A stretch of 64,000 nt of DNA from contig CAYHDT010000001.1 of assembly GCA_964355655.1 (NCBI GenBank), positions 21,588 through 85,587 on the forward strand, given 5' to 3'. This document shows positions 1-61,560 of the stretch, one piece after another. A program made the position numbers and the translations under genes. The first letter of the stretch is position 1. The number at the start of each line of letters is the position of its first letter. The notes below the pieces were generated by a model. The model did not search any database. It was not told the DNA's origin and worked only from the letters and a program-made list of their open reading frames with translations. The stretch is from an uncultured Candidatus Saccharibacteria bacterium (lineage in GTDB: Bacteria; Patescibacteriota; Minisyncoccia; Phycocordibacterales; SBAW01).

Positions 1-705
1 GCCCTCAGTGGGCCACGAAAGCAGCAGTTCTGACAGCGGCATGCTGAAAATATTTTTTGCGTCCGCACCGTCCGCTCGGGCAGTGTAGCCGTTTGCGCCG
101 GAGGCCGTTTTAAGCAAGTATGCGGCGTTTGCTCCGTCAGGAGATATCGCAAAACTTGTAATGCCCGCGGGGAGAAACCGGATACGCACCGGGGAAGTGG
201 TCGTGGCATCCGCGGCGGGCAGGGCAAAGTGCACCGTTTTAACCGCGCCGACGTCAATATATTGCATTAAGACACCTCTTCCTTTTTCGCTCCACTGTAC
301 CCGCGCGATGCCGGGGATAGTGGTGTTAGAGATTGCTTTAGGCACCGCGCCCGGCGAGTCCAAAACAAGGTCGAACGCGTGCCCGTTTGTTGCCATCACA
401 AACCGGGCAATAGTCGATGTAGCCGGGCGGAAAATTTGTACGAATGTAGCGCCGGCGACGGGGCCGTCAGCTATTTTAAAAACCTTTTTGGAACTGAGAA
501 CGCCGTTTGCTGCCGACCCCGGACCGTTGGCATCCGGCAACACTGTTACCCCGGTAGTTGCGCGTATATTGCTTTGCCCGAACGGAGGCTGTTCCTGCGC
601 CGGCGCAAAATCGGGAGTATTGAAATAGGCGAGCCAAATAACAATCCCCGCCGCGACTATCCCGCCGCCGACTATTCCCGCTATTATTTTCCAGTTTGTG
701 TTCAT
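1..705 (-). CDS. Partial CDS; the gene runs off the window start, so its C-terminal part is missing. N-terminal TM anchor followed by PD40/TolB-like beta-propeller repeats (ISPDGAKAAYL-type). Not present in the supplied ORF track.
   Basis: Reverse-complement translation of 1..705 is open throughout (MNTNWKIIAGIVGGGIVAAGIVIWLAYFNTPDF...FAISPDGANAAYLLKTASGANGYTARADGADAKNIFSMPLSELLL). The ATG at 705-703 overlaps the TAA stop of the upstream pilin-like gene (TAATG). Confidence 0.55.
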   Translation of the reverse strand, partial: MNTNWKIIAGIVGGGIVAAGIVIWLAYFNTPDFAPAQEQPPFGQSNIRATTGVTVLPDANGPGSAANGVLSSKKVFKIADGPVAGATFVQIFRPATSTIARFVMATNGHAFDLVLDSPGAVPKAISNTTIPGIARVQWSEKGRGVLMQYIDVGAVKTVHFALPAADATTTSPVRIRFLPAGITSFAISPDGANAAYLLKTASGANGYTARADGADAKNIFSMPLSELLLSWPTEG

Positions 706-1694
706 TATTTTATGCAAAAGAAGGATGTTGCGCCTGAGCCGGCATCGACCGACTTAACAGAACCCGATAAGTTATCTTGGCAATTTTTCCAGAAATTTTC
801 TATCTGCTGCAATTTTTCAGGAGTTGAGCCGCCGGGTATGGTAAGACTAGGACCCGTAGCGCCCACCGGAGTTGGCGCCGCGTAAATGGCCGGGCCGGAA
901 TTATTTCCGGGTAACATAGTACGAAGTTCCTCGAGTGCGTTAAGGTTAAATTCCAAAAGTTTCGGATTTATAGTGTTGAGTATAAGCCAGCTTCCGGCCA
1001 AAAGCAGCAGTCCCCAGAGCGCGGCTTGGGCGCGGTGCTTCGCTTTTTCGATGTCGACCGCCGACTCAGATATCATATATCCGATGCCCGCGACCACTAT
1101 CATAACAACCGCAAAGAGTCCGCCGATGGTAATGAGCGCCCGGAAGATGGCGGAGACAAAAGCCGGAAAGTTGGTCCCTGTTTGGCCGCAATTGCCGCTC
1201 GGGTCTTGGCACGGCAGAGGTTCGAGCGGAACATAGTCGCACCTTCCATTTTGTTTACAAAAAGCGTTAGGATTTGACGTTTGTTGCGTCGGTGTTGATG
1301 GGGTGGCGGGCGGAGCCGTAAGTTGTTGTACGGAGGGACCACTTCCTGTAGAACCAGCAGTGCTGCAATTACTGAGATATTGACTCACAGCAGGCCCGTC
1401 GGCTCCCAAGGGATCATTAACTGTTAGTGGAGCGAGTGTTGTTCCGGGACAAGTGTAGGTAGCAGGAGTAGAGCCAACAGGAACTGAGCAGCTACCCCAT
1501 GTGAACCAGCCAGATGCGTTCCAATTTCCGCCTCGAACAGTGCAGGCAGTTTGATTATCTGCCAACGCAACTATTGGAACCAAGAGGAGTCCGGAAAATA
1601 ATAGTGAAACGAGGAGTTTTTTCATCCCGTTAGAAACCCAGCCTGCACGCAGGTTGGCAAAAATTTTCAATTTTTGGTTTCTAACGGGATTCAT
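705..1694 (-). CDS. Secreted Cys-containing protein with a C-proximal TM segment. Pilin-like, T4SS-associated hypothetical.
   Basis: Signal peptide MKKLLVSLLFSGLLLVPIVALA, Cys-rich ectodomain, TM AIFRALITIGGLFAVVMIVVAGIGYMI. ATGA overlap with the upstream gene. Sits in the VirB4 cluster. Confidence 0.5.
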   Translation of the reverse strand: MNPVRNQKLKIFANLRAGWVSNGMKKLLVSLLFSGLLLVPIVALADNQTACTVRGGNWNASGWFTWGSCSVPVGSTPATYTCPGTTLAPLTVNDPLGADGPAVSQYLSNCSTAGSTGSGPSVQQLTAPPATPSTPTQQTSNPNAFCKQNGRCDYVPLEPLPCQDPSGNCGQTGTNFPAFVSAIFRALITIGGLFAVVMIVVAGIGYMISESAVDIEKAKHRAQAALWGLLLLAGSWLILNTINPKLLEFNLNALEELRTMLPGNNSGPAIYAAPTPVGATGPSLTIPGGSTPEKLQQIENFWKNCQDNLSGSVKSVDAGSGATSFFCIK

Positions 1695-3355
1695 AGGCCG
1701 ATGAAGTTAAACAATGAGTTGCTTTGCTCTGCGCCGAATACAAGTTGGAGCGATGTTTGCGCGGATTGTACGAGCTGGTTGGGGTTGTTGTTCTGCATCG
1801 AGACCCCTATATCGGCGCTCCCGCTGCCCGATCCTGTCTGCCGCAGTGTCAATATCCCCCGGGCGCTATCGGGGCCGGTCGTCTCAGTGCCGCTGAGCGT
1901 CCACACAAACGGAATAAGCCCGGATTTTGCCGTCGCCGTCGAAAAATAAAAGGCTTCCGCTTTGATGGTTATCTCTTTAGCGGCAAGCGATATAGCCGCG
2001 GGCAGAGCCGCCTCGTACAAAATGCCCCGCAGAGCATCGTACTGGTAGAGCAGGATAAAGGGCGCCGTCGCGGGGAGAAATAGTTCGGCATGGCCGACTT
2101 TATTGACACCATAATAAACATCGACGGCAACATCTTCTCCGGGCTGCAACTGATCGCCTGTGCGGGTAAAGATATTGCGTCCAAGGCCCGACACCTCGGG
2201 GACAGGATCGCCGCGATATATCCATTGATAAGACAACGCACTGTGGGCAACACGCGCTGAGCCTGAGTACACCGTGGGAAGCGCCACTACTTTGTAGTTA
2301 GAGCCCGCGCTGTAAAGGGCTTTCCCTTGGTAGAGCAGCGGGACGGTAGTGTCCGCTTCCCAAATAAGGTTTACGCGCGAAGGGTTAAAGGTAAAAGTCC
2401 TGGTAAAGACTCCCTGGCTTGAGTCTATTGTCGCGCGCACGGTCGTTTTTTCGCCCAATGCTCCGGTGACAAAAGTGTAAGAGCGCTCCCCAATGCCTTC
2501 TTTGACCACCTTGCCGTCCTTGCTCCAGGTAATGTTGGCGCTGCCGAGGAAGGAACCAACCCCTTGTATTTCGATCGCGACGTTTTCGCGCGCGCCCGGA
2601 GCCTCGGGCGCCACGATATATTGCACCGGCGCCGGGACGGTTTGCGCATGTACTTGCTTTGCCGGCAGGCAGGCCTGGATTCCGAACATCAGCAACAACG
2701 CCAATGCGGCGCCTCTTGCCGCGGGGCGGATATCATTAAAGCGACCGGCCAGGAGCGGCGCGCGTGAACGCTCTTTAGTTTGGATTTCTTTTTCCAACGC
2801 GACGGCGGGGGCAAAGCGGCGCTGTGCGGAGACTCCGGCAATATGTTTCAGCCCCCCCGGCCCTTTCCCGCGCGCGGTTACGAACGAAAGCGCTTGGCCG
2901 AACGTCCCCGCCGGAGCACTTTCCTCTTTTTGCTTTTCCCGGATGCACTTCCATACCATGTTGGTCCATATCGGGAGAAAGCCGAAGAAAGGCATTATCT
3001 CGCCGAGCATTCTTGGAATGATAACGCGCGGGTAGAACATGCCGTTCATGGCGAGCATCATAATAATGACGGCGCCGATGGTAATGCTGAGCGCCGTATC
3101 AACCGCGGCCCCCAGCGGTATGGCAAAGGCGCTCATGCCGGCGCCTATCAAAGCTCCTCCAATCGCGCATTTTGCGCCGGCAACAAGAGCGGCTATAGTG
3201 CCGGTCGTAGCGTTATAGCAATATGTTGCGCCGAGCGCGGCTCCCGAAAGACCTCCGCCTACCGGTGTTGCAAATTGAAGCGCGATAAAAGCCATGCCGA
3301 TAAAGAACTGGATGAAGTCGAGTATGGCCGCGGGGATAAGGTAGAAGTACCGCAT
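1691..3355 (-). CDS. Polytopic membrane protein with a large extracytoplasmic C-terminal domain (T4SS cluster member).
   Basis: Start reassigned to MRYFYLIPAAILDF (ATG at 3355) with a GGAGG RBS, 1 nt after the VirB4 stop. Three to four N-terminal TM helices are followed by an internal signal-peptide-like segment (ALALLLMFGIQACLPAKQVHAQ) and then about 320 aa of soluble domain. Confidence 0.55.
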   Translation of the reverse strand: MRYFYLIPAAILDFIQFFIGMAFIALQFATPVGGGLSGAALGATYCYNATTGTIAALVAGAKCAIGGALIGAGMSAFAIPLGAAVDTALSITIGAVIIMMLAMNGMFYPRVIIPRMLGEIMPFFGFLPIWTNMVWKCIREKQKEESAPAGTFGQALSFVTARGKGPGGLKHIAGVSAQRRFAPAVALEKEIQTKERSRAPLLAGRFNDIRPAARGAALALLLMFGIQACLPAKQVHAQTVPAPVQYIVAPEAPGARENVAIEIQGVGSFLGSANITWSKDGKVVKEGIGERSYTFVTGALGEKTTVRATIDSSQGVFTRTFTFNPSRVNLIWEADTTVPLLYQGKALYSAGSNYKVVALPTVYSGSARVAHSALSYQWIYRGDPVPEVSGLGRNIFTRTGDQLQPGEDVAVDVYYGVNKVGHAELFLPATAPFILLYQYDALRGILYEAALPAAISLAAKEITIKAEAFYFSTATAKSGLIPFVWTLSGTETTGPDSARGILTLRQTGSGSGSADIGVSMQNNNPNQLVQSAQTSLQLVFGAEQSNSLFNFIGL

Positions 3356-3356
3356 A

Positions 3357-5165
3357 TTATTGGGCCGCCTCCGCCTTTTTTTGGCGCAGGGCAAGGACTT
3401 GGGACGGGTCGGAAGTGATTATTTGGTCTTCGGTGTAGGAGGCTATTACTTTTATGGCAACATGCTTAAGGCCTGCGAAGAAGATTCCCTCCCCCACATC
3501 GGACTCAAGGAGCAAAAACTTCTCTTCGTCCGATAAGTTAAAAGTTTTCTGCAGATTGTCTATGGTAGTCGGCGACTGTTTAAGGAGTATCTGGATACTG
3601 GAGTTGGTAATCATCGGCAATCCGTACGGTGACTTCAAAAAGTCATCTACGTCTTGCGTGATGGTGGCAAGTCCTAAGTAGTATTTGCGGCCGCGCTTGG
3701 CCATCGAGTACAGGAAGCTCGCGGTGTCGTCCGACTTCATCATCCACCACGCCTCATCGATGACGAGTAGGCGTTTTTTAAGATTTTTGCGCACCGCGTT
3801 CCAGATGTAGTGCGTAATAAGGTACATTGCCACCGGCTTCAGGTCGTCTTCCATGTCGCGGACGGAAAAGACGACAAATTTTTTGTTTATATCGACGTTG
3901 GTCGGTTGGTTGATAAAGCCCGACCATGTGCCCTTGGTGTACTTGCTGAGGCGCTGCACCAGGGACTCCGAGCCCTGCAAGCCCGCGAGCACCAGCTCGA
4001 AGTCGGAAAGGAGCGGCGGCTCCACCTCGGCAAAGTTGCTGTCGATGGTAATGTCTTTAAGCGCGTATGTTTCGGTAATGGCGCGGTCAATAATGGCATC
4101 TTCTTCGGGTGTGAGCCCCCCGAGCATAATGCGGAACATTCCTACCAGCGCCACGATATTGGAGCGCAGAATATCGGCCGGCGACTCGTCTTCGCGCGGG
4201 ACAGCCAAGTCAAACGGGTTGATATGATTTTCCGAGTTGAGAGAAATGTTGAAGTATCGCCCGCCGACCGTTTGCGCCAAAAACTCGTACTCGCGCTCCG
4301 GGTCGATGACGATAACCTCGGTATCAAACATCAATGTGCGCAAGATTTCCAGCTTGGTGGCGTATGACTTGCCGGAACCGGACTTGGCAAAGATGACGGA
4401 GTTATAGTTCTCGAGACTGAAGCGGTCAAACAGCACCAGAGAAGCGTTGTGTCGGTTGACGCCGTAGAGTATGCCTTTGTCTGAAGTAAGGTCAAAAGAC
4501 ACGAACGGGAAGATGCTTGAAAGCGGGCTTGAGTTGAGTTTGGAGTTAACCTTCAACTCGTCGTGGCCGAGCGGGAGCACAGACTTAAAGCCCTGCTCCT
4601 GTTGGAAGAGCGCGGGTTTGACGTATACGAGGCGCGACTCCAGCATGGACTTTATTTCGCTCTCGGCTTTGTCCAACTCTTCGACCGAGGCGCCGTAGAT
4701 AGTAATGTAGACGCCGACGTCAAAAAGCTTTTCCTGCGCCTGCTGGAGCTGGTCGCGCAATGACTCCAGGTCTTGGTAGGCGGTGTCGAGTATCGGGTCG
4801 CGCACGAGGCCCTTCTCCTCCCGGGACATTATCTGGCTCTGCACCTCGGCCACCTTTTTTTGGAACTTTTTAAGTATCTCGGCGGAGTCTATCGGGTGGA
4901 TAAAGATAGAAATATCGAGCACGCGGTCGAGGTTGATGATGGGAGAGAACCACGAGTCGGTCAGGACTCTCGGGTAGGACATCACAAAAAACGTGCGCGC
5001 TATCTTGTCGCCGAGGTTTATCTCGCGGGGAGTTATTTTAAGCGCCGACGGGGCGATGACGTCCTGCAGCTCGAGTACCCCCTCTTTATATATTTGTTCG
5101 GGGAGTATAGACGCCATCGGCGCTAAGGTCTCTTTTTTTGGTTTTAGAAAATCTAAGAGTGCCAT
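3357..5165 (-). CDS. virB4: VirB4/TrbE/CagE-family type IV secretion ATPase.
   Basis: Walker A FAKSGSGKSY, Walker B LLVIDEAWWMM, 602 aa, typical VirB4 C-terminal ATPase architecture. Confidence 0.9.
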   Translation of the reverse strand: MALLDFLKPKKETLAPMASILPEQIYKEGVLELQDVIAPSALKITPREINLGDKIARTFFVMSYPRVLTDSWFSPIINLDRVLDISIFIHPIDSAEILKKFQKKVAEVQSQIMSREEKGLVRDPILDTAYQDLESLRDQLQQAQEKLFDVGVYITIYGASVEELDKAESEIKSMLESRLVYVKPALFQQEQGFKSVLPLGHDELKVNSKLNSSPLSSIFPFVSFDLTSDKGILYGVNRHNASLVLFDRFSLENYNSVIFAKSGSGKSYATKLEILRTLMFDTEVIVIDPEREYEFLAQTVGGRYFNISLNSENHINPFDLAVPREDESPADILRSNIVALVGMFRIMLGGLTPEEDAIIDRAITETYALKDITIDSNFAEVEPPLLSDFELVLAGLQGSESLVQRLSKYTKGTWSGFINQPTNVDINKKFVVFSVRDMEDDLKPVAMYLITHYIWNAVRKNLKKRLLVIDEAWWMMKSDDTASFLYSMAKRGRKYYLGLATITQDVDDFLKSPYGLPMITNSSIQILLKQSPTTIDNLQKTFNLSDEEKFLLLESDVGEGIFFAGLKHVAIKVIASYTEDQIITSDPSQVLALRQKKAEAAQ

Positions 5166-5271
5166 ATATATAGTTTAAGCTCCAAATCTCAAGCTCCAAA
5201 TCTCAAACAAGCTCCAATGTTTAAACTTTAGAAATTTAGGATTTTTCATTTTGTTTGTAATTTGAGGTTTG
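5166..5271. repeat. Intergenic AT-rich inverted-repeat element between virB4 and the upstream gene.
   Basis: AAGCTCCAAATCTCAAACAAGCTCC paired with its imperfect reverse complement AAGCTCCAAATAACAAACCTCAAATTA. There are also direct AAGCTCCAA(A)T repeats. Confidence 0.6.
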
Positions 5272-5931
5272 TTATTTGGAGCTTAGTTGTTCTACCTGCA
5301 GCGGCTTCTCCAGCTCGCCGGGGTTAAACAATTTGTAGAACAGCTCTATCACTTCTTCGGTGCCGAGCTTGACCACGCGCACCCCCGTGCGCACGAGCCC
5401 CTGCTCTATAACACTGACGCGCTGTTCGAGCTGAGTACGGTACTGCTCAAATTGCTCGTCATTTAAAGCGCCGGCGCCCTTGCCACTGCCGGGCAGCAGC
5501 GAGCCGAACATTCCTCCGCTGCGGTTAGCCAGCGCCGGGTCGTACGGCACGACAATAAAAAAGTTTTTTGTCATGATATTGGCGCGTTCGGTAAAATCTT
5601 TAATAAACGCCATGTACTCGCGTATCTGTATCTTCATCAACTCGTCGAGCTCCTTGGAGTATCGGTCCTGCAGGAGCGCGATGTAGGGGCGGATGTCGAG
5701 GTCGCGGCTTTGGATAAAAAATTCCACGGTAAACTCCAGTGAGTTAAGGAAGTTTTGGAACTGCCCGATGATGGCCTGCTGTTCGTCCTGGGACTTCAGC
5801 GCCAAGTTGATGCTCGAGGCCATTAGCAATACGCGCAACGAGCCGTCTTTAAGTATGATAACGCCGTCGCGCACTTCTTTAATAGGCACGAACTCCTGCG
5901 TCGCTTTAGATTTAATTTTTTGCTGGGGCAT
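5272..5931 (-). CDS. Hypothetical T4SS-associated protein, possibly a split VirB4 N-terminal domain.
   Basis: 219 aa soluble protein encoded between the PrgI/VirB3-like gene and virB4. The gene order VirB3-like, this ORF, VirB4 is an inference from synteny. Confidence 0.55.
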   Translation of the reverse strand: MPQQKIKSKATQEFVPIKEVRDGVIILKDGSLRVLLMASSINLALKSQDEQQAIIGQFQNFLNSLEFTVEFFIQSRDLDIRPYIALLQDRYSKELDELMKIQIREYMAFIKDFTERANIMTKNFFIVVPYDPALANRSGGMFGSLLPGSGKGAGALNDEQFEQYRTQLEQRVSVIEQGLVRTGVRVVKLGTEEVIELFYKLFNPGELEKPLQVEQLSSK

Positions 5932-6015
5932 AAAATTAACAAGTACAATACATACAACCAGAACAACAAGTACGATATTTTTTTATTGTATTTATTGTTT
6001 TCATTGTACTCGTTG
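5932..6015. repeat. Intergenic AT-rich inverted-repeat element. Paralog of 6466..6563.
   Basis: ACAACCAGAACAACAAGTACGATAT ... GTACTCGTTGTT, shared with the next spacer. Confidence 0.6.
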
Positions 6016-6465
6016 TTATATCTCGAATCCGCTGCGCTCGGCCGCAGTGACGCCCATTTGTGTACGGTCTTTTATGTTGAGCGACCAGGACAGGTCGCGG
6101 AGCTTGCTTTCGGACAGCTTTGGCACCGGCAGGTTTGATGGTTTTGCGGCCGGTACCGCCTTGCCTGCGGCGGGCACCCCTTCTTTATGGACTTTCCACA
6201 AGTAGAGTTTGCTCCCGAAAAAGTAGCCGGTCGCGTGCTCGACCGCGTGTATGAGCGGGCGGCCGTTTATCTCAAAAAAAGCGAGTCCGGCCGAAAAGGC
6301 CAGGACCGGGATGCCGAGGAGCACCGTTAGATACAGCGGCAGGAGCGTAAACATCAGCAGGCACAGGCCTCCCCCGCCGGCCAGCCAGATAAACTGCTTG
6401 AGCGTCAGCGGCCCGAAGATTTTATCCTCCACCTCGATAAATTGAGGAACCTGATACTGAGCCAT
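6016..6465 (-). CDS. PrgI/VirB3-like small membrane protein.
   Basis: N-terminus MAQYQVPQFIEVEDKIFGPLTLKQFIWL followed by two TM helices, located upstream of VirB4, as is typical of Gram-positive-type T4SS. Confidence 0.6.
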   Translation of the reverse strand: MAQYQVPQFIEVEDKIFGPLTLKQFIWLAGGGGLCLLMFTLLPLYLTVLLGIPVLAFSAGLAFFEINGRPLIHAVEHATGYFFGSKLYLWKVHKEGVPAAGKAVPAAKPSNLPVPKLSESKLRDLSWSLNIKDRTQMGVTAAERSGFEI

Positions 6466-6563
6466 CGCTATTAAGTATACAACCAGTACGACAAGTACGA
6501 TAAATACAATATAGGACAGCCTGAACTTCTTTGTACCTGTTGTTTATTGTACTTGTTGTTCTG
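6466..6563. repeat. Intergenic AT-rich inverted-repeat element. Paralog of 5932..6015.
   Basis: ACAACCAGTACGACAAGTACGATAAAT ... ATTGTACTTGTTGT. Confidence 0.6.
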
Positions 6564-7196
6564 TTACTCTGCTGGTTCGCGGTACGGGTCTGCGGTGTAA
6601 GGTTTTGGCGCAATTGGCGCAGCCGGAGAAGGGTTTGTTATTTGTGCCGGCGCCGTGCTGACAGTCTTTTGGGTCAGTATCATATCCGCAGGGTGGGGTG
6701 TGATGATTTTGGGGGCAGGAACCATAGGTTTTGGCGGTAAAGGCGCAGGGACAGGCGGCAATTTAGGTTGTGCCGGAGGAACTATCGGAGGTACAGGTGT
6801 GGAAATTTTGACGGACGCAGGGGCGATCGCCGGTCTGGTCACTTGAGCCGGGCTTGGCACAACTTTCTGTTTCTGGTAAGTTTTTTTCATCACCTCGCGT
6901 ATTTTTATAAACAAAAGATCATTTAAATCTCGAGCTATTGCATCCGCCTTGGTTGAATCGATACCCATGGTTTCTGCCAATACTGCTTGGAAGTCAGCGG
7001 TGTCGGTAAAACCAAGCATAACTGCGCTTGTTTCGTCCTCGAGCACCCCCGTTTGATCTAAATGGAGTTGGTATTTTTGAGCTATTTGTCGGATGGTCAT
7101 GAGCATCTCCGAGCTATATAACAGATATTTTATTTCCGGCGGCAAGGAATCATAGCGGGCTTTTGCTTCTTGAGGTGTGTAAGTTTTTTTTGTCAT
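6564..7196 (-). CDS. Hypothetical protein with a Pro-rich C-terminal half.
   Basis: 210 aa. N-terminal globular region, then a PxxP-rich tail (PVPPIVPPAQPKLPPVPAPLPPKPMVPAP). Confidence 0.55.
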   Translation of the reverse strand: MTKKTYTPQEAKARYDSLPPEIKYLLYSSEMLMTIRQIAQKYQLHLDQTGVLEDETSAVMLGFTDTADFQAVLAETMGIDSTKADAIARDLNDLLFIKIREVMKKTYQKQKVVPSPAQVTRPAIAPASVKISTPVPPIVPPAQPKLPPVPAPLPPKPMVPAPKIITPHPADMILTQKTVSTAPAQITNPSPAAPIAPKPYTADPYREPAE

Positions 7197-7202
7197 ACTT
7201 AC

Positions 7203-9395
7203 TTATACTTTTGGACTAATAATCTCTGCTTTATTTGTTTTTTCGATTTTCTTTTCAAGCTCTTTCACATGAGTGAGTCCATCATTTACTGTTTGTCTGG
7301 TTGCAGACAAAGTCGCCATGGTGGACGTGTCTCGGGCAAGTCGTGCGTCCTCAAATTGTTTGGTGACTTCTTTCAGTTTTGTTCCGAGTCCATCCTTTAG
7401 GTCTTTAATATTGGCATCCTTTATTGTAATGCCTGCCGCTAGCGTAGAGGTAAGAGTTGGAATTCCTCCCAGTTTTGTATTGATGTCTCGCAAAAGTTCA
7501 ATTTCTTTTTGCGCTTGGCGTACCATAGCGTGAGGAGAGTGGTTTTCATAATTGGCGTGCGCTTCATCTTTTTGTTGCTCATTCATTTTTTCGAGATCGC
7601 TCATTATCTTGCTCTGGCTTTCGGTAAAGATATGAGATAGGGTTTTTATGTGGTCGGCATCCAAGGTTCCCATTTGACGTTTATCCAGCGCTTGTAAACG
7701 CCCAAGGTCTGTTGCGTCAATACCTTTTTCAGCTTTATCGCCTGCGGCGATATTCCTTTCAATAATAGGCTTTATTTTTGAAGATAACTCACGATTCTCG
7801 ACGTCTCGTAGGTTGTTGCCCATCTCTTTGTTGCGGGTATCAAGGAACTCTTTTCGCACTTTGTAAGACGAAGCAACGGTTCCCAAAGACGTTTCAGTCA
7901 TGGGTTTAAGCACATTTTTGTTGAGCCGGTATCCTACCGTGCCCAGAGCTTTGCCCCATAGAGTTGAGCGATCGTTTGCCCATCTGCTGCCGGCTACACC
8001 CTTGCTGGCCGCATTTGCAAGTCGGCCACCCGTCTGACGGTATGCAGCGCCGGCAGCCCAGCCAGGGCCCCATTTGGCAGCAGATTTGCCGGCATTAAAT
8101 ACTCCACCACTGACAGTAGAGGCGATACTGCTTCCCTCTTTGACCACCCAGTCCGAAACCTTAAGCGCCACGTACATAAGCGCGATGATGAACCCCATGC
8201 GGATAAACACCGCCGCTATCGTACCCATCGAGGCTATTTCAGAGCCTCCGGCTGTGGCATTCCCCGCAGTGTTGGCGATGGCGTTCATAAGGCTGGTGCT
8301 GGCGCCGCCGGTGGTTCCTCCGGAGAGTATATCTCCCGAAAACCGGGTGAGAATAAGGAACATAAAGAGGAATATCGCCGGGTAGGCCGAAAATTCGATT
8401 AGCTTCCTCAACCATTGATGAAAAAAGTGCGCGGTCTGTGGCATCGTGCGTGCCACAAAAGCCAACGGCGAGGCTATAAGCAAAAACCACAGTCCCACGA
8501 TACGGAGCAAAAATTTGATTCCCACCTGTACAAAAATGAAGAAGAGCATCCACAACATGACCGCAACCGACAGATAAATGACGGTAAAGGTCCCCAGCGC
8601 TGCCCATGCTCCGCTGGAGAAGACAGATTGGTTTCCGCCTATTTGGTCGAACATTTGCTTGCTAAGCAACACCTGCGGGCCTACGGCCCCCATGATAGAG
8701 GTGCTTAGGTCTTTGACGCCGTTTATCTGCACTATTTTCCCGTCCGTCCCCGTCCCGGCGGGTATCGCATTATAAAATTGGAGAGCCAGGATGTTGCCGG
8801 TGTCTATCGCCACCCGGGTAAAAAAGAAGCTAAAGTTGACCAGGAGCGCGACAAGGACCACGACCGCAAGCGTTTTTATTGTCCCCGCGGTTTCCGCCTC
8901 TAGCATGACCATTACGGCGATGTAGATAAGGATAAAAATGAACGTCATGTTGGCGATATCGCGCACGGTCTCCCACCCTTTTGACAGGAAGTCCAGCGCG
9001 TAGGCGGTGCTGTTGAGCGACAGTTGTATGACGATGCTGAAAAAGTAGGCACCAATGTAGGCGACTTTGGTGGCCAGCATGGGCCCGACGTAGTACATAA
9101 GCACCGTAAGGCATTGCGTAATGCCGTTGCACTCAATTTGGGTAGAAGGTTCTTTGAAAGAGTTTTTAATAGCCTCTCCGGCTATATAACCAGTCGCCGA
9201 CCCGAGTAGTGGTACTGCATGAGCTTTTGGCGCACCAATAGGTGCCATGCTCGCTAAAAGCATCGCGAGCACAATACCGGGGATTATTTTTTTACTTAAA
9301 CGCATTGCATTGTTGGAGCTCGTCGGCGGTTTGTTGGTTGCGCGAGGCAAGCGCGCTTTGGAGCGTTGTCCGGTCTTGTGTCGCGTTGGTAACAT
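7203..9395 (-). CDS. VirB6/TrbL-like polytopic membrane protein with a long C-terminal coiled-coil/charged domain.
   Basis: At least 6 TM helices over about 400 aa, then a Lys/Glu-rich helical tail. An alternative start at 9305 (MRLSKKIIPGIV) is possible. Confidence 0.6.
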   Translation of the reverse strand: MLPTRHKTGQRSKARLPRATNKPPTSSNNAMRLSKKIIPGIVLAMLLASMAPIGAPKAHAVPLLGSATGYIAGEAIKNSFKEPSTQIECNGITQCLTVLMYYVGPMLATKVAYIGAYFFSIVIQLSLNSTAYALDFLSKGWETVRDIANMTFIFILIYIAVMVMLEAETAGTIKTLAVVVLVALLVNFSFFFTRVAIDTGNILALQFYNAIPAGTGTDGKIVQINGVKDLSTSIMGAVGPQVLLSKQMFDQIGGNQSVFSSGAWAALGTFTVIYLSVAVMLWMLFFIFVQVGIKFLLRIVGLWFLLIASPLAFVARTMPQTAHFFHQWLRKLIEFSAYPAIFLFMFLILTRFSGDILSGGTTGGASTSLMNAIANTAGNATAGGSEIASMGTIAAVFIRMGFIIALMYVALKVSDWVVKEGSSIASTVSGGVFNAGKSAAKWGPGWAAGAAYRQTGGRLANAASKGVAGSRWANDRSTLWGKALGTVGYRLNKNVLKPMTETSLGTVASSYKVRKEFLDTRNKEMGNNLRDVENRELSSKIKPIIERNIAAGDKAEKGIDATDLGRLQALDKRQMGTLDADHIKTLSHIFTESQSKIMSDLEKMNEQQKDEAHANYENHSPHAMVRQAQKEIELLRDINTKLGGIPTLTSTLAAGITIKDANIKDLKDGLGTKLKEVTKQFEDARLARDTSTMATLSATRQTVNDGLTHVKELEKKIEKTNKAEIISPKV

Positions 9396-11277
9396 CCGCT
9401 TCGGTAATAATAGTCCCCGAGGCGAGCGCGCTCTTGTAGGCGGCGGTCACCGCCGCGACATCCGCCGCCGAGGCCACGCTTAAAGCTTTTGTTTGCAGGT
9501 CTTGCAGGACTGCAATGCCCGTGTTGGCGCGCGTGATATTGGCGTTATACGCGTCTATCTTCGGGTCGTACTGGTGGAGCGCAAACACCGCGTTAAAGGC
9601 GTGCGTCTGCGCTATTTTTTGTTTGTCCTCGCTTAAGCTCGGGCTCGACGAAGCCGCTTCCCAGCAGTTGGCCAGCGACTGTAGCTGCGACTGTGCGCTT
9701 TGGATGTCCGCGATAGACCCCTGCTGTGTCGAGCCGTATTGCTGGGCTATTTGCACCTTGCCTTGCATGTCGGTCAAAAGAGCCTGCGCGTCGGCCTGCG
9801 CCTGCTGCTGCGCCGGGGTCAAAAAGTTGGACGCGTAGCCGCTCTGGCCGCTGAGTTCGGAAAGTCCGCCCTGCAAGGTCCTAGTCATAAGCTGGGTAAT
9901 AAGCGCGCTGATGATTTCGTCAAAGCTTTTGGCCAAGTTGAGCGAGTCTTGGCTCACGCCGAGCGTCTTGTTGAGCGACTCAGCAATGGTCGAGCCCGGG
10001 GTTGTCACAACGGTATTGCAGGTGCGATACTGGCCCCCTTCTATGGCGGTTGTCTTTTGGCCCGGTCTTGTACCGCCGGCCGGCGGCCCGCTGGTAACCG
10101 TGCAGTTGACCTCCTTGGTCGAAGAGATAAATCCTCTGCCCAGAATATAATCCTGCTGTCTCTGGCCTACCGCTTGGTTTTGCGCGTTTGTAAGCCCTAC
10201 CTGCGCGTAGGCAAATGCGCCGAAGGGGTTGTTGGTTGGTATGGAGGTAAATTGCAACAGGCCGCCCCACCCTCCTTGGGAGAAGTTGCCGTTCATAAAG
10301 CCGGTAACATTTTTTATGATGCTGGTAAGACTGCAGGACATCGCTCCTTGGCGCGCGTAGCTTTGCGCTATGGCGACGCGTATTTGCAACTGAAACGGCG
10401 AGCAGAGGAACGAGAGCGACGAGCCGCGGATAAACTCCCCCGCCGCTTGGTCGGCCACATTGGTAAAGAATTGCTGGTAGTTGCGCACGAACGACGGCTG
10501 GCCGTTAAAACCGGAGTTTATCCAGTTGACGACGCTCGCCGTTATTTGCTGTATGGCGGCGCGCGCAATGCCGCGCGCGATGCAGTTTAAAAAGTTGTCG
10601 CGCACCGTGTCGTTAGTTTTGAGCGTGTTGCCGTAGGCGGTTTGAGCGTTAAGCGCAATATCGTTGACCGGCACTGCCACGAGCGTGTTGCCAACGATCA
10701 GCGTTCCTCCTATGCCGCCGCCAAGAAGGGCGCTTCCAAATAAACTTGCCGTGCACGATACTGCGCCGGCAATACCGGCCCCCAAGAGCGCGGTGCCAAG
10801 CCCGAGCCCGCCGCCATTGTCGTCGCCGGGCCCTCCGCCGCCGGAGAATATATAAGGGGTGCCCGAAACATTGTTGTTGTTAAGGTCATTTATTGTTTTC
10901 GGGACAAAGTTTGTAGTCGGCCCTCCGCCTCCGCCGCCCGTCCCTCCGCCCCCTCCCCCGAGCCAGTCCACTCCGGGGATGTTTGCTATACCCCCGGCTC
11001 CGCCGGCTGCTCCACCCGCGCCGCCGGTACCACCCCCGCTGCTCTGTATCCCGGTTCCGACGTTAGTATTCGAGCCTGTCGGCAGGGTCCCGGAGGAGGA
11101 ATTGTTGGCGTTTGTACCGGTACCGGTCGAACTTCCCGGTTTTAGCTGCCCGGTGCCGAAGGTGCCGGTGGTTGCGGCGGGCTTTACCGTCGCGCGGAAG
11201 AAGAAAAACCAGACGAGCCCGACCACCAGCGCAAATAGTGCCGCGGCAATGATGATAATAAGAGTGCGCCTGTTCAT
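9292..11277 (-). CDS. Membrane-anchored protein with Gly/Thr/Asn-rich low-complexity regions (T4SS cluster).
   Basis: N-terminal TM IIIIAAALFALVVGLVWFFFF. Long GGGTGG/NNNN tracts, then a Cys-containing globular domain and a Q/A-rich C-terminus. ATGA overlap with the upstream gene. Confidence 0.6.
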   Translation of the reverse strand: MNRRTLIIIIAAALFALVVGLVWFFFFRATVKPAATTGTFGTGQLKPGSSTGTGTNANNSSSGTLPTGSNTNVGTGIQSSGGGTGGAGGAAGGAGGIANIPGVDWLGGGGGGTGGGGGGPTTNFVPKTINDLNNNNVSGTPYIFSGGGGPGDDNGGGLGLGTALLGAGIAGAVSCTASLFGSALLGGGIGGTLIVGNTLVAVPVNDIALNAQTAYGNTLKTNDTVRDNFLNCIARGIARAAIQQITASVVNWINSGFNGQPSFVRNYQQFFTNVADQAAGEFIRGSSLSFLCSPFQLQIRVAIAQSYARQGAMSCSLTSIIKNVTGFMNGNFSQGGWGGLLQFTSIPTNNPFGAFAYAQVGLTNAQNQAVGQRQQDYILGRGFISSTKEVNCTVTSGPPAGGTRPGQKTTAIEGGQYRTCNTVVTTPGSTIAESLNKTLGVSQDSLNLAKSFDEIISALITQLMTRTLQGGLSELSGQSGYASNFLTPAQQQAQADAQALLTDMQGKVQIAQQYGSTQQGSIADIQSAQSQLQSLANCWEAASSSPSLSEDKQKIAQTHAFNAVFALHQYDPKIDAYNANITRANTGIAVLQDLQTKALSVASAADVAAVTAAYKSALASGTIITEADVTNATQDRTTLQSALASRNQQTADELQQCNAFK

Positions 11278-12191
11278 TGTGGTGAGTATGAAGGAAGAAA
11301 AACGTCCCAGGCTGCTCCCGGCTCGTCTTTACTGAAAAGTATACCGCTCTTACGCAGTTGTTCGGCCAGCGTTGTCAACAAACGAGAGGCTTCGGTTCCG
11401 GAAGTTTGAAATAGCTGCAGGCCGGCAAGCCCCCGCATCGGGTCGTCTATAACAGTCTTCATTTCGCCCGCGGCAACCGACATTTTGGAAAGGTTATTAA
11501 GCAGCTGCAGATACAAAGGAGCAACGGTCGATGGAACCGGCATGCTTGCAAGGTCGTCGGCAAGCGCGGCATACGCCGCGCCTATGGCGGTAAGCGGGGC
11601 AAGCGCCGAAGCATCACCGTAATCGATCGCTTTTCCTATAGCCAGAAGAGCCTCGTCATTGTTGGCGCGCGGGTGGCCAAGAAAAGTTTTCATAACCCCG
11701 TTTCCCCACTCGTGCAGGCTGGTTGGTGTTTGGCTTATCATCGTGAGGTTGCTCGCCGTATATGCCGCCGACACGTTTTTCTCTACCTGCGCGGCGGCGT
11801 CGGCTATAAGCTTTTCTTGCGTCGGTAAATCACTCCCCAGTCCTTGCGCCCCCGCATCGCCGAGGTTAACAAACAGCGATCGGGCAATCGAGTTAGTGAC
11901 ATTGGAGCTTTGTGCCGCTGTAAGCATCGCCCGGACGGCCGTTTGGTCCGGCGCCGCGGGGAGCCCCGGCGCCTGCGCCTGTATTGCGTCTAGGGATGCC
12001 TGCCAATTTTCTGTTTGTGGAGCGCCGCTCGCGGTCAAAAGTACGGAGGTGGAGGCAGATTTGGGACTGGTCAGGTACTGCGCGCCGATAATAAGGCCCC
12101 CAGCAAGCGCTACCGATAAGACAATGCCTGAAAATCGCGAACTGGGGAGATAAGCACGAACGTCCATGCATCCAGTATATAATGGAAACAT
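11274..12191 (-). CDS. Hypothetical membrane-anchored protein (first gene of the minus-strand T4SS block).
   Basis: TM GIVLSVALAGGLIIGAQ near the N-terminus, then an Ala-rich soluble domain. An alternative start is possible at 12167. Confidence 0.5.
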   Translation of the reverse strand: MFPLYTGCMDVRAYLPSSRFSGIVLSVALAGGLIIGAQYLTSPKSASTSVLLTASGAPQTENWQASLDAIQAQAPGLPAAPDQTAVRAMLTAAQSSNVTNSIARSLFVNLGDAGAQGLGSDLPTQEKLIADAAAQVEKNVSAAYTASNLTMISQTPTSLHEWGNGVMKTFLGHPRANNDEALLAIGKAIDYGDASALAPLTAIGAAYAALADDLASMPVPSTVAPLYLQLLNNLSKMSVAAGEMKTVIDDPMRGLAGLQLFQTSGTEASRLLTTLAEQLRKSGILFSKDEPGAAWDVFLPSYSPQ

Positions 12192-12579
12192 GCTTCACTT
12201 CGCCCGTCTTTATACGATAGCTGCATTGCTGGTAGTTTTACTTATCCCGTCGCTCAGTTCGGCGAGCCTCGGCTCCAGTGTTACTCCCTGGCTCCCCGAC
12301 CCTTTTGGAGGTACTGTGATCTCTGTCCTCCCGTGTCTCACTGCCCCAGGCTTTTTTGCAGTCAACATGATAGAGCGCCTCTCCATACCGCCCTATTTTA
12401 CCTACAGCACTTACATACTGAGTCCACTTTCCCCGTTCCTCTCACATGTACCTCCACATCCAGGCCAGAACGTCATTGGTAAGTCTTTTGGTATGTACTC
12501 CTGTATTATCGACCTCAATCCGAAACATTACGTGGTCTGGTTTGAGCCGTTCTCAGTCTTTTATGGCAGCAGCCTCTAG
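12166..12579 (+). CDS. Possible small secreted protein, antisense to and flanking the T4SS block (speculative).
   Basis: ORF with a signal-peptide-like N-terminus (TIAALLVVLLIPSLSSASLG). No clear RBS. Lies in an AT-richer gap between minus-strand genes. Confidence 0.25.
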   Translation: MHPVYNGNMLHFARLYTIAALLVVLLIPSLSSASLGSSVTPWLPDPFGGTVISVLPCLTAPGFFAVNMIERLSIPPYFTYSTYILSPLSPFLSHVPPHPGQNVIGKSFGMYSCIIDLNPKHYVVWFEPFSVFYGSSL

Positions 12580-13346
12580 CCTTCGGCGAGTTTGAGCCAT
12601 TGCTCTAAAGGCACATCCTCCGCGCGCGCCTTGTCGTCTATTGCAGTCTTTTGCAAAACACTAGCATAGCCGGGGCCGAGGTTGTTCTTGAGAAATTTTC
12701 TTTTTTGAGCGAAACCTTTCTTCACCGTTTCAAAAAATCTTTTCTCGTGCGCGGCGTTGGTAAAGTTTTTCCGTGAAATATTTTCCACCGCGAGTATGGC
12801 GGAGTCGACTTTCGGCGGCGGGGAAAACGCGCCCGCCGGCACGGTCTTAATATATTTTGGCGTACCGTATGCCTTAATCGAAAGCGAGAGTATCGATTCT
12901 TTTTTTGAGCGCGCGATACGCTCCCCCACCTCTTTTTGGATTAAGAACACCAGCGTCGTAGGCTGATTGGTTCCGGATAGAAATTTTTTAAACAGCGCGC
13001 CCGTAATGTAGTACGGAATATTGCCGACTACTTTGTAGCCCCGACGCAAGGTCGGGACCCCGACCAAGGCGTCGGGGCTGCTGAGGTCAAACTCCAGCGC
13101 GTCGCCTTCTATCACTTCGAAATCTTTACCTGCAAACTTATCCCGCAAAAAAGAAATCAATCTTGAATCTTTTTCTATCGCGACGACCTTTGCGCCGCGC
13201 TCTAAAATGACGGAAGTCAGACTTCCGTCACCGGGGCCTATTTCCAATACCGTCTCCCCTTCCTTTATATGTGCGGCGTCGACAACCGCCGCAAGGTAAG
13301 CGTCCGAGTTCAAAAAATGCTGCCCGAGGGATTTTTTCTTAAACAT
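12576..13346 (-). CDS. rsmA: 16S rRNA (adenine1518/1519-N6)-dimethyltransferase.
   Basis: LGQHFL motif, SAM-binding VLEIGPGDGSLT, about 256 aa. Confidence 0.9.
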   Translation of the reverse strand: MFKKKSLGQHFLNSDAYLAAVVDAAHIKEGETVLEIGPGDGSLTSVILERGAKVVAIEKDSRLISFLRDKFAGKDFEVIEGDALEFDLSSPDALVGVPTLRRGYKVVGNIPYYITGALFKKFLSGTNQPTTLVFLIQKEVGERIARSKKESILSLSIKAYGTPKYIKTVPAGAFSPPPKVDSAILAVENISRKNFTNAAHEKRFFETVKKGFAQKRKFLKNNLGPGYASVLQKTAIDDKARAEDVPLEQWLKLAEG

Positions 13347-14214
13347 GAGTTAAGGTTTTAAGCGGAAACTGGCTGCTGTAGAGCTCTCCAAATTCCAATG
13401 GGATCACAGCGAGCAGAATATTTTTTTGAGCTAATAATGCGCGAGTTTTTTCAACATAGGCCAAAGGAACTTCAACATGAGTAAAACAATGCAGTGGAAT
13501 CCGCTTCGCCACGCGCACCTCAAATTGCCGCAAGAATGGGACAACCCCGTCTCCGGATACCGCATCTTTAGTGAGTCCTATTAAAACAGGGTGATTCCCC
13601 TCGATGTCAGAACGCAAATCATACGCCCGCCACCAAGGGATTACTTTGTAGGCGTCCATGTTACAGATGGCATTCGCCCAAATTCGCGCACGTTTAAGAA
13701 AGTTTCTATTAAGCACCGTCTGTTTTAGAAACTCACGCCCGCCTGGCCCCGGCTGTACGAGTAATGCTCGGGTAGCAAGAAAAAAGAAGAATCCCATCCA
13801 AAACCGAGTTCCTCCAAACACATAGTCGAGCCACACTCCTTTGTAAAGATGTATATGCGCGTAGAGGCGCGCGTGCATGCGCGATGGGGCAACCGACACG
13901 GTTTTTTTGAAATGGCTGTTGATTTGAACCCATAAGTCCTGATGACCGTTGAGGCCGCGGTTCGAAAGAATAGATTCGAGCACGTTGACGATATCGATGT
14001 GTTCCACAGCGCCATACCGGGTGTCATTAGGATGACGGTAATGGTAATGCCCGGTGCCGTGCCAATATACAGCCTGTTCGTAACATTTTTCTAGGAGCGG
14101 TAGATACTGGCTGTAGTCGCGCCAGCGCTCGTTTCGCACCCCCTCTGCCTGTTGGCGGTATTTGAGGAGGTGTTTTTCGCTATGATTTAAAAAAAGTCGA
14201 TACAACATCGTCAA
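13339..14214 (-). CDS. Hypothetical protein.
   Basis: 291 aa ORF, co-directional and overlapping with its neighbours (rsmA and the helicase). No motif recognised. Confidence 0.55.
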   Translation of the reverse strand: MTMLYRLFLNHSEKHLLKYRQQAEGVRNERWRDYSQYLPLLEKCYEQAVYWHGTGHYHYRHPNDTRYGAVEHIDIVNVLESILSNRGLNGHQDLWVQINSHFKKTVSVAPSRMHARLYAHIHLYKGVWLDYVFGGTRFWMGFFFFLATRALLVQPGPGGREFLKQTVLNRNFLKRARIWANAICNMDAYKVIPWWRAYDLRSDIEGNHPVLIGLTKDAVSGDGVVPFLRQFEVRVAKRIPLHCFTHVEVPLAYVEKTRALLAQKNILLAVIPLEFGELYSSQFPLKTLTHV

Positions 14215-39323: not shown

Positions 39324-39337
39324 ACTTTAGCAAGAAA

Positions 39338-39366
39338 GCCCTGTCTCCGCTAGGGAGACCAGGGCT
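39338..39366 (-). promoter_or_regulatory. Stem-loop in the pnp leader / NYN-gene terminator region.
   Basis: GCCCUGGUCUCC...GGAGACAGGGC hairpin between the NYN gene stop and the pnp start. An RNase III-processed leader hairpin occupies the analogous position in E. coli (established knowledge, used here as analogy). Confidence 0.4.
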
Positions 39367-39398
39367 TTCACTTGTATAAAACTTATTTTACGGAGCCT

Positions 39399-41684: not shown

Positions 41685-42605
41685 ATGGCGGAGCTTAAAA
41701 ACCTCAAGACCCAGTTTTTGGAATATTTAGAGATAGAGAAGGGGCGCTCTGTTAAGACGGTCGAAAATTATGACCGCTATCTGACGCGCTACCTTGCTCA
41801 CTCCAAGGTTACCTCCCCCCAGAAAATCACCGAGCAGTCGGTGCGCGAGTTCCGCATACATTTAAACCGGCAAGCCGGTACGAGCGGGACGATGAAGCAC
41901 AAAACGCAGAACTATTACATGATTTCACTCCGCGCGTTTCTTAAGTTCCTCCGCAAGCGCGATATAGAAAGCTTAAACCCCGAACGCATCGAGCTGGCCA
42001 AGGTCGGCCAGCGCGACCTCGACCTTATAACCTCCGATGAGCTTAACCGCCTTATCAACGGGCCCAAAGGCGACCCATCTTTGGCGGGCCTGCGCGACCG
42101 CGCCATACTGGAGCTTTTTTTTAGCACCGGTCTGCGCGTCTCGGAGCTATGCGCTCTTAACCGCGACATCGACCTGACACGCGACGAGTTTAGCGTGCGC
42201 GGCAAGGGCGAGAAAGTCCGCGTCGTTTTCCTATCCCCCGCGGCCAAGCAAGCTATTAAGGACTACGAGCAGAAGCGCGGCGACGTGGATGAGGCGCTGT
42301 TTATACAGATGGGCCCCTCCTCCGCCAAGGCTTCGGAGGGCGGGCGCGACTTGCGCTTAACGCCTCGGTCAATTGAGCGGATTGTAAAAGGCTACGCAAT
42401 CAAAGCCGGCATCACGCGCAAAGTAACCCCGCACGTCATAAGACATTCTTTCGCGACTGATTTATTGGAAAACGGCGCCGACCTGCGCGCAGTCCAGGCA
42501 CTCTTAGGCCACGCCAACATAGCAACCACACAGGTTTACACCCACATAACCGACAAGCACCTGCGCGAAGTCCACAAAAAGTTCCACGGCCAGCGGAGGA
42601 AATAA
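41685..42605 (+). CDS. Tyrosine recombinase XerC/XerD family.
   Basis: Catalytic residues R..HxxR..Y (HVIRHSFAT...LLGHANIATTQVYTHI). Confidence 0.85.
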   Translation: MAELKNLKTQFLEYLEIEKGRSVKTVENYDRYLTRYLAHSKVTSPQKITEQSVREFRIHLNRQAGTSGTMKHKTQNYYMISLRAFLKFLRKRDIESLNPERIELAKVGQRDLDLITSDELNRLINGPKGDPSLAGLRDRAILELFFSTGLRVSELCALNRDIDLTRDEFSVRGKGEKVRVVFLSPAAKQAIKDYEQKRGDVDEALFIQMGPSSAKASEGGRDLRLTPRSIERIVKGYAIKAGITRKVTPHVIRHSFATDLLENGADLRAVQALLGHANIATTQVYTHITDKHLREVHKKFHGQRRK

Positions 42606-61492: not shown

Positions 61493-61560
61493 TTTATTTC
61501 TTAGCCGGGACGGCTTGGTGGGTCAAAATGTCGTCCACAATGCCGTACTTTTTAGCCTAT
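61493..61560. repeat. Direct repeat copy A: a duplicated clpP 3' end (last about 20 codons plus stop).
   Basis: 66 of 68 nt identical to 63692..63759. Copy A still encodes ...[20 protein letters not shown] on the minus strand. Confidence 0.8.

Follow-up and report, generated by a model that had tools for sequence, protein, structure and literature searches.

Probable inserted palindromic repeats in the type IV secretion operon of a groundwater Parcubacterium

The 64,000-nt stretch of contig CAYHDT010000001.1 analysed here (hereafter the window, or WIN) carries a type IV secretion system (T4SS) operon in which three consecutive gaps, around the genes for a PrgI/VirB3-like protein and the two parts of VirB4, are filled by AT-rich palindromes that we term S1, S2 and S3. 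The host is a groundwater Parcubacterium (Patescibacteria), and contigs that match the window identically originate from well H52 in the Hainich groundwater. The explanation that we favour, and consider probable, is that the spacers are small non-coding interspersed palindromic repeats, resembling repetitive extragenic palindromes (REP) or miniature inverted-repeat transposable elements (MITE), that were inserted in the stop/start junctions of a tightly packed operon. Judged from comparison with related loci, the hairpins are not conserved regulatory parts of the T4SS operon. Their absence from most relatives, the dispersal of the family at unrelated junctions and its patchy distribution on a VirB4 tree lend weight to a suggestion made in an initial annotation of this DNA, that they could be remnants of a small MITE-like mobile repeat.

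Anatomy and folding of the spacers

The spacers and the genes that they separate are listed below; junction A is the gap before prgI, junction B lies between prgI and virB4N, and junction C between virB4N and virB4C.

3357-5165, minus strand: ATPase part of VirB4, 602 aa (Pfam P-loop_TraG, 1.9e-26, and AAA_10)
5166-5271: S1 gap, virB4N/VirB4 ATPase junction (junction C), 106 nt, GC 0.28
5176-5285: S1 palindromic element, 110 nt, running 14 nt into the upstream gene
5272-5931, minus strand: VirB4 N-terminal/TraC-like protein, 219 aa (PF26593, precomputed annotations)
5823-5969, minus strand: small open reading frame (ORF) crossing a spacer
5920-6138, plus strand: small ORF crossing a spacer
5932-6015: S2 gap, prgI/virB4N junction (junction B), 84 nt, GC 0.25
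5932-6015: S2 palindromic element, 84 nt, filling the whole prgI/virB4N junction
5954-5977, plus strand: shared 24-nt core in S2, ACAACCAGAACAACAAGTACGATA (exact repeat search)
6016-6465, minus strand: PrgI/VirB3-like protein, 149 aa (Pfam PrgI, 6.8e-09)
6466-6563: S3 gap, junction of the 210-aa gene and prgI (junction A), 98 nt, GC 0.36
6479-6502, plus strand: shared 24-nt core in S3, ACAACCAGTACGACAAGTACGATA (exact repeat search)
6480-6563: S3 palindromic element, between the stop codon of the 210-aa gene and the -10-like box ahead of prgI
6564-7196, minus strand: 210-aa protein without a family match, upstream of prgI and poorly conserved (25-50% identity in relatives)

The initial annotation described three paralogous, markedly AT-rich spacers of about 85-105 nt in a GC-rich genome, each built from a long imperfect inverted repeat and two of them with a common core. 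The measured gaps (106, 84 and 98 nt) and their GC contents of 0.25-0.36, against 0.528 for the 64-kb window, agree with the sizes and the AT-richness, although a GC content of 0.528 is moderate rather than high.

All three spacers are real palindromes. The folding energy of S2 is -22.9 kcal/mol (z -5.1) for the mRNA strand and -20.9 kcal/mol (z -4.8) for the antisense strand, and that of S3 is -21.7 kcal/mol (z -2.3) in the sense and -30.8 kcal/mol (z -5.2) in the antisense direction. For S1 the z-score is -1.4 when folding is confined to the gap, and over 5166-5290 the energies reach -30.8 kcal/mol (z -5.2, sense) and -35.6 kcal/mol (z -6.1, antisense). The arms of its inverted repeat, located at 5176-5210 and 5251-5285 by repeat search, have as their outer parts a perfect 12-nt pair, TAAGCTCCAAAT / ATTTGGAGCTTA, and the score of the inverted repeat was matched by 1 of 1000 shuffles. 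One arm (5177-5217, plus strand) comprises the 14-nt unit AAGCTCCAAATCTC twice in exact form and once more in part; the other takes in, at 5272-5285, the stop codon and the four preceding sense codons of the upstream gene, whose product ends ...LSSK in the window and ...LATK or ...MAAK in relatives.

In S2 each arm consists of about four tandem 9-nt units, with D1 and D2 at 9-nt spacing in the repeat search, and the sense strand reads CAACGAGTA CAATGAAAA CAATAAATA CAATAAAAA ... GTACTTGTT GTTCTGGTT GTATGTATT GTACTTGTT. The units common to S2 and S3 are 9 nt long, TTGTAYTTR on one strand and the complement on the other, with some 3-4 per arm around a variable loop. The core of 24 nt that they share, ACAACCAGWACRACAAGTACGATA, occurs exactly twice in the window, at 5954-5977 and 6479-6502, where no occurrence is expected by chance. 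Local alignment of S2 with S3 gives a significant score of 42 (shuffles 16 +/- 2.7), whereas S1 aligned with S2 or S3 scores 16, no better than shuffled sequence (17.5 +/- 2.4), so that the description as paralogues holds for S2 and S3 and fails for S1. From its sequence we regard S1 as a separate element, of the same architecture as S2 and S3 but built from 14-nt units.

Junctions in related species

The 219-aa VirB4N protein has thousands of close homologues. A genome scan yielded 80 species-level loci (labelled L003-L082), all of them metagenome-assembled genomes of Patescibacteria, with titles that include Adlerbacteria, Paceibacterota, Parcubacteria, Nomurabacteria, Kaiserbacteria and Saccharibacteria; the exception is L067, titled as a Nanoarchaeia archaeon. 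VirB4 is split in all 80 species, into a TraC-like N-terminal ORF of ~219 aa and a P-loop ORF of ~600 aa. The P-loop part retains 92-98% amino-acid identity among relatives even though fourfold-degenerate sites are only 0.5-0.6 identical and essentially saturated, which indicates extreme purifying selection on this protein.

Most of these operons have almost no space where the window has its palindromes. Junctions B and C mostly measure 0-12 nt (for example ...ATATAA/ATG or ...AAATAA t ATG; ~75 of the 80 species), junction C being 1-9 nt in the aligned relatives, and junction A measures ~21-40 nt (21-24 nt where the alignment lacks an S3-type element). Fillings of 60-100 nt occur in a few lineages only, and just two species representatives have one of the window type: L014, with an S2-like element at junction B, and L005, whose junction C holds an S2/S3-type element at the place where the window has the unrelated S1. 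Since the same junctions are only 0-12 nt long (21-40 nt before prgI) in ~75 of 80 related species, the three spacers are lineage-specific insertions relative to most relatives. Three of the fillings, L005-C, L135-B and S1, are fused with the upstream reading frame and alter its final residues.

When further relatives are included, occupancy is patchy: the window is filled at A, B and C; L141, L133 and L142 at A only; L014, L135 and L205 at B only; L005 and L123 at C only; and L003 and L004 at none. On a rough neighbour-joining tree of VirB4 the filled lineages are interleaved with empty ones, pairing L141 (A filled) with L014 (B filled), L133 (A filled) with the empty L004, and the window with L003, while L142 (A filled) falls in a distant clade. 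Even loci with an identical VirB4N protein differ at junction A, where L201 has the element and L197-L200 and L204 have the short ancestral junction; the homology between L201 and L197 (92.5% over 4.2 kb) begins exactly at the prgI ATG.

Other sequences are also found at these junctions. More distant Parcubacteria carry unrelated palindromes there (L068-B 2892-2994, L048-C 3670-3729, L078-B 2824-2994, L065-B 2775-2994 and L069-B 2754-2991), one with arms of TATAAAGTA-type units and another a perfect 40-nt palindrome, and each Parcubacteria lineage seems to have its own palindrome families. At junction A of L003 a 308-nt insert (L003:2253-2560), with inverted repeats on both flanks, contains on the opposite strand a gene for a GIY-YIG protein of 86 aa (Pfam 1.1e-16), and just upstream of prgI the 210-aa gene is replaced by toxin-antitoxin or abortive-infection genes (HicA; ParE, AbiEii) in L201:210-675 and L205:4170-5620. 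Because other lineages have unrelated palindromes, a GIY-YIG gene or toxin-antitoxin genes at these positions, the T4SS junctions appear to tolerate insertions, and the region before prgI looks like an insertion hot spot.

A dispersed family of 9-nt units

The initial annotation proposed a search for further copies of the core. None lies elsewhere in the window, and it is in relatives that the 9-nt-unit family appears at further junctions. A two-arm pattern, CAAGTACRAT N8-38 TYGTAYTTATYGTW, which matches S2, S3, L005 and L014, was run on a metagenome collection and matched 53 stretches, ~10 of which are T4SS junction copies in further relatives. Because neighbour-ORF calling around the metagenome copies is noisy, the gene assignments given here are used qualitatively.

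L108/L141, L133, L142: junction A copies
L106/L135/L144, L150: junction B copies
L120, L123: junction C copies
L143/L129/L148: copy at an ftsZ / thioredoxin-reductase-like gene junction (groundwater-type samples)
L121: copy at a nusB-NUDIX / rnc junction (groundwater-type samples)
L149/L152/L155: copies at rpmB / M50 peptidase / rpsL (groundwater-type samples)
L141: three more copies, around rnpA, yidC and jag

Copies are also found between convergent genes. Their density ranges from 2 per 81 kb in the present genome to 4 per 14 kb in L141. Successive GTWYT anchors in the Parcubacteria-type copies show a spacing of exactly 9 nt in 55 of 79 cases, and a small vocabulary of units (TTGTATTTA, TTGTACTTG, TCGTACTTG and TTGTTCTAG) recurs in numbers and orders that vary from copy to copy.

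About 35 of the 53 matches belong to a palindromic repeat of rumen Bacteroidota and were dropped as evidence of dispersal in Patescibacteria; the contigs are assigned to Bacteroidota because they encode LptD, a SusC-like receptor and a C10 peptidase. This multi-copy palindrome (...GAAAACAACAAGTACAATAAATACAA-loop-TTGTATTTATTGTACTTGTTGTTTTCC...) lies between convergent or tandem genes on L103, L105, L107, L109-L112, L114, L116, L118, L124-L128, L130-L132, L137, L139, L140, L145-L147, L151, L153 and L154. It has 9-mers and the 9-nt phasing in common with the Parcubacteria family, a likeness that the search pattern in part forces. An earlier one-arm pattern of 20 nt, RACAAGTACRATRMATACMA, gave 20 matches on viral contigs, all of them chance coding matches (NKYNEY-type), and was replaced by the two-arm pattern; in the viral scan the S1 unit matched coding tandem repeats only.

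Conservation of sequence and of pairing

The copies resemble each other closely. The L123 copy, from a different junction, matches S2 with 95% identity over 76 nt, and the L014 copy, from junction B like S2 itself, with 90%. S3 is 87% identical to the junction-A copies of L141 and L133, which share 96% identity with one another, and 81% identical to that of L142. A sliding-window comparison of WIN with L014 gives identities of 0.80-0.90 across the S2 region and 0.47 at the adjacent 3' end of prgI. The element sequence is far more conserved than neutral sites, and the elements may have spread much later than their hosts diverged, or have a strongly constrained primary sequence, or both. Sliding identity revealed no recent recombination tract around S3 or S2: the flanks on the outer side are not unusually similar, so that transfer of whole junctions is not shown.

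Conservation of pairing presents a different picture. The duplex formed by the two arms of one copy is no more stable than that formed with an arm from another copy (mean -24.8 versus -24.4 kcal/mol, p = 0.32; p = 0.97 and 0.99 in comparisons within groups), L014-B has uncompensated substitutions that reduce the stem to -14.6 kcal/mol, against -22.9 kcal/mol in S2, and 9 of the 13 copies with a known gene direction fold better as antisense. Because own arms pair no better than foreign arms, L014-B is uncompensated and the transcribed strand is not preferred, the palindromy is a property of the family, in the form of inverted arrays of one motif like terminal repeats or operator arrays, and not a copy-by-copy RNA structure.

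Evidence for and against mobility

Several features are those of known small repeats. As in MITEs, the elements are short (84-110 nt), have no conserved ORF and occur in both orientations relative to flanking genes; their ends are inverted repeats, as perfect 12-nt ends in S1 and inverted arrays of 9-nt units in S2 and S3; and the S2/S3 family, though not the single-copy S1, has dispersed copies with filled and empty sites. As in REP sequences and REP doublets forming hairpins (REPIN), they are extragenic imperfect palindromes with a sequence conserved across copies.

Other observations weigh against inserted mobile repeats. Neither a transposase nor a REP-associated tyrosine transposase (RAYT) was found among the ~50 window proteins scanned or beside the copies in relatives, and neither an autonomous partner of a MITE nor the RAYT of a REP/REPIN system was thus seen there; the only recombinase seen among these ~50 proteins is XerC/D-like (41685-42605). 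No unambiguous target-site duplication is visible: S1, S2 and S3 can each be read as flanked by TA, but 2 nt in AT-rich DNA are too short to serve as evidence, and in several insertions a few bases of the junction have been replaced or the element runs into the reading frame upstream. S2 and S3 are the only members of their family in 81 kb of this genome (the 64-kb window and 17 kb of flanks), and no second copy of S1 was found in the ~1 Mb of loci searched. T4SS and origin-proximal junctions are over-represented among the copies, though the search pattern was itself derived from T4SS copies. The promoter-proximal arm of the junction-A copies is nearly invariant in four lineages, and the strong conservation of the elements could equally mean a function at the level of the host.

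Transcription signals and RNA families

Two -10-like hexamers adjoin the spacers.

5172-5177, minus strand: TAAACT, 6 nt upstream of the VirB4 ATPase ATG at the edge of S1, read from the sequence; a speculative promoter element
6474-6479, minus strand: TATACT, 8 nt upstream of the prgI ATG, from the junction A alignment; a putative promoter element

A TATAAT/TATACT box lies 6-9 nt before the prgI ATG in all relatives inspected. The TAAACT at the S1 edge was not picked up by a consensus scan for promoters and terminators, which returned nothing in the three spacers. TAnAAT-N6-ATG is also present upstream of the genes starting at 34926, 41685, 51377, 17978 and 16115, and a loose Shine-Dalgarno motif precedes only 15 of the 70 window genes. 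With this motif rare and a TAnAAT box often placed 6 nt ahead of the ATG, the organism seems to make wide use of leaderless transcripts.

The spacers were considered as intrinsic terminators and rejected, their stems being 25-35 bp long and AU-rich and the terminator-like hairpins of the genome GC-rich. One of the latter, in the gap between an NYN-domain gene and pnp (39324-39398), is a GC-rich hairpin followed by a T-rich tail (GAAAGCCCTGGTCTCC...GGAGACAGGGCTTTCTTG). No Rfam family passes its threshold in the spacers, and in the window only four tRNAs do; the best matches over 5100-6650 are miRNA-precursor models at 20-28 bits, against thresholds of 89-195.

Alternative explanations

The hairpins might be selected cis-acting RNA elements, such as RNase III sites, 3'-exonuclease barriers or attenuators, that set the PrgI:VirB4N:VirB4C ratio. 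Three consecutive junctions of one operon are filled, all three spacers fold far better than shuffled sequence, the stems are closely followed on their 3' side by start codons, the elements are much better conserved in sequence than neutral sites, and the genome of the window encodes PNPase and RNase Y, with RNase III in a relative. A conserved regulatory role is hard to reconcile, however, with the lack of hairpins at the corresponding positions in most of the 80 species, which have T4SS proteins of 90-98% identity, or with the presence of the same family at unrelated junctions. Pairing is not maintained by copy-specific compensation, the sense strand has no folding advantage, and at junction B the substitutions in the L014 copy leave it with a weaker stem than S2 (-14.6 kcal/mol, S2 -22.9 kcal/mol). 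We therefore consider this explanation improbable, and the regulator site, attenuator or RNA-processing element envisaged in the initial annotation gained no positive support, given that compensation is lacking and the mRNA strand folds no better. If it is primary sequence rather than pairing that is conserved, the arms could instead be arrays of 9-bp sites for a DNA- or RNA-binding protein (a regulator, or a nucleoid-associated or partition-type protein), that is, operators and not mobile DNA. Strict 9-nt phasing, the small conserved vocabulary of units, their variable number and order, the position of several copies near the replication-origin gene cluster and the four TrmB-family regulators encoded in the window are all compatible with this. 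Yet the elements have no candidate protein linked to them, their patchy occurrence in close relatives fits poorly with a conserved regulon, and the units of S1 are entirely different; operator arrays seem to us decidedly improbable.

It is very doubtful that the insertions are transcription signals which split the operon by terminating the upstream transcript, by supplying an outward promoter for the downstream gene, or both. Independent insertions do end within 3-4 nt of the next start codon, the lineages filled at junction A conserve the -10 box and the 8 nt to the ATG together with the element, the prgI ATG is the exact point at which their homology to an empty relative ends, and S1 ends in TAAACT-N6-ATG, the geometry of the other putative leaderless promoters in the window. 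Against this, the consensus scan found neither promoter nor terminator in the spacers, the stems are AU-rich whereas the recognisable terminators of the genome are GC-rich, S2 as read from its sequence has no -10-like hexamer at leaderless distance, and elements also lie between convergent genes. Such likelihood as these three explanations retain comes mainly from the unexplained conservation and from the clustering at T4SS and origin-proximal junctions. Guide-RNA arrays of the tandem interspaced guide RNA (TIGR) type, or arrays like those of clustered regularly interspaced short palindromic repeats (CRISPR), have next to no likelihood. TIGR arrays have ~36-nt units with alternating edge and loop repeats and UG...CCA boxes, usually 5-15 repeats, beside a Nop-domain Tas gene (PMC12045711), and they share with the present elements a 9-nt length scale, that of their spacers, and an occurrence in Patescibacteria, having been reported from parasitic bacteria (PMC12045711). 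The arrays described here are inverted rather than tandem, with all 9-mers of one type and T4SS genes as neighbours, and were ruled out as TIGR or CRISPR-like arrays on anatomy, having no edge/loop alternation, UG...CCA boxes or Tas gene.

Origin and consequences of the insertions

If the spacers are inserted interspersed repeats, as we favour, the 9-nt-unit family would spread, or be homogenised, faster than the host genomes diverge. Spread might depend on an enzyme acting in trans and encoded elsewhere in the genome, or on DNA uptake followed by recombination, a route that we propose because Patescibacteria are reported to be naturally competent and to have retained recombination genes (PMC12455944). 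The sequence of the units would then be constrained by whatever recognises them, and not by the T4SS. The elements are probably co-transcribed within the operon and would form AU-rich hairpins of 25-35 bp where stop and start codons ancestrally overlapped; the following start codon would lie immediately beyond the stem. Any effects on expression, whether from a barrier to RNase III or PNPase, from lost translational coupling or from a new -10 box at the S1 edge, may be by-products rather than the reason for their presence; by analogy with Correia and REP elements, termination, processing by RNase III, RNase Y or PNPase, and promoter creation are plausible secondary outcomes.

We see a slim but appreciable chance that the 9-nt palindromes are a constrained cis element for a Patescibacteria protein or RNase, recruited repeatedly at highly expressed, origin-proximal housekeeping junctions (T4SS, rnpA-yidC-jag, rpsL, ftsZ) and spread by transformation and recombination without a transposase. 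This, if true, would amount to an undescribed rewiring of operon expression in ultra-small, transposase-poor genomes, and would account for the 87-96% identity of the elements despite saturated synonymous sites.

Patescibacteria have tiny, streamlined genomes. On the interpretation as inserted repeats, elements of this kind are present in groundwater Parcubacteria, are mobile or exchanged among them, and can break stop/start overlaps in one of the most conserved operons of the phylum. The filled and empty junctions would provide a natural set of alleles for the handling of intercistronic hairpins and leaderless starts, and the family a marker for recent exchange between lineages. Annotators should be wary of taking these hairpins for conserved T4SS regulatory RNAs.

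Genomic context

Every gene from 700 to 16100 is on the minus strand, and this run includes the T4SS genes.

705-1694, minus strand: T4SS pilin-like gene, within the same-strand gene run

Beyond window position 1 in the same genome, the T4SS operon directly adjoins jag (R3H)-yidC-rnpA-dnaA-dnaN (L193:6788-11130), a neighbourhood that is probably the vicinity of the replication origin. This position agrees with the report that the T4SS of Patescibacteria often lies near the replication origin (PMC12102498); according to work cited in that paper, the T4SS is essential for epibiotic growth in a Saccharibacterium.

Elsewhere in the window, four TrmB-family transcription regulators are encoded in 64 kb of a reduced genome (31917-32684, 45067-45840, 48802-49647 and 61552-62295). 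A 425-aa protein (24531-25808) combines a strong Ice_binding-like domain (7e-77) with a peptidoglycan-binding domain, and its gene clusters with those of sortase, fibronectin-type-III and PKD-domain surface proteins. A 66-nt stretch is present twice with 97% identity, once just downstream of a TrmB-family gene (61493-61558) and once as the 3' end of a clpP-like gene (63690-63755), and is probably a gene-fragment duplication.

Comparison with known repeat families

Searches of the literature by sequence words and keywords found no published interspersed repeat family in Patescibacteria. Interspersed palindromic repeats are well known as a kind, and it is the phased 9-nt family and its occurrence in Patescibacteria that appear to be undescribed.

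The Correia elements of Neisseria (Correia repeat enclosed elements, CREE, or Neisseria miniature insertion sequences, NEMIS) are non-coding, ~100-150 nt long and TA-flanked, with inverted arms; they lie near genes, are co-transcribed as hairpins, and reportedly serve as substrates of RNase III and give rise to promoters at their ends. Their terminal repeats are fixed at 26 bp, a genome contains hundreds of copies, and no transposase is known to lie near them. The present elements are likewise small non-coding palindromes near genes, with no transposase seen nearby. They differ in that their arms are built from phased 9-nt (or 14-nt) tandem units in variable number, that 64-80 kb contain few copies, and that the TA duplication is unproven.

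Rickettsia palindromic elements (RPE) insert in frame and extend reading frames, and mycobacterial interspersed repetitive units (MIRU) are direct tandem repeats in operon junctions with small coupled ORFs. Both resemble the present case in that small repeats are tolerated in or between essential genes, S1, L005-C and L135-B being fused with the 3' end of the upstream frame, although neither in-frame intragenic insertion nor direct repeats with coupled ORFs fit the elements described here. Closer in construction is the pneumococcal BOX element, which is intergenic and modular (modules of 45-59 nt), with a variable number of short internal units and potential stem-loops. The modular build, the variable unit number and the intergenic position are shared, whereas BOX is not a simple inverted array of 9-mers and its host belongs to a different phylum.

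REP sequences of gamma-proteobacteria, with the bacterial interspersed mosaic elements (BIME) and REPIN, are extragenic palindromes of conserved primary sequence found at operon junctions, between convergent genes and dispersed among housekeeping genes. Within operons, as at malE-malF, REP stabilises the upstream mRNA. REPs, which are GC-rich 20-40-mers, number in the hundreds and are associated with a RAYT transposase gene, whereas the elements in the Parcubacteria are AU-rich, modular and of low copy number, with no RAYT in the sequence examined. The resemblance to REP and BIME is in placement and conservation: the Parcubacteria elements, too, lie at operon junctions and between convergent genes, conserve their primary sequence and are dispersed among housekeeping genes.

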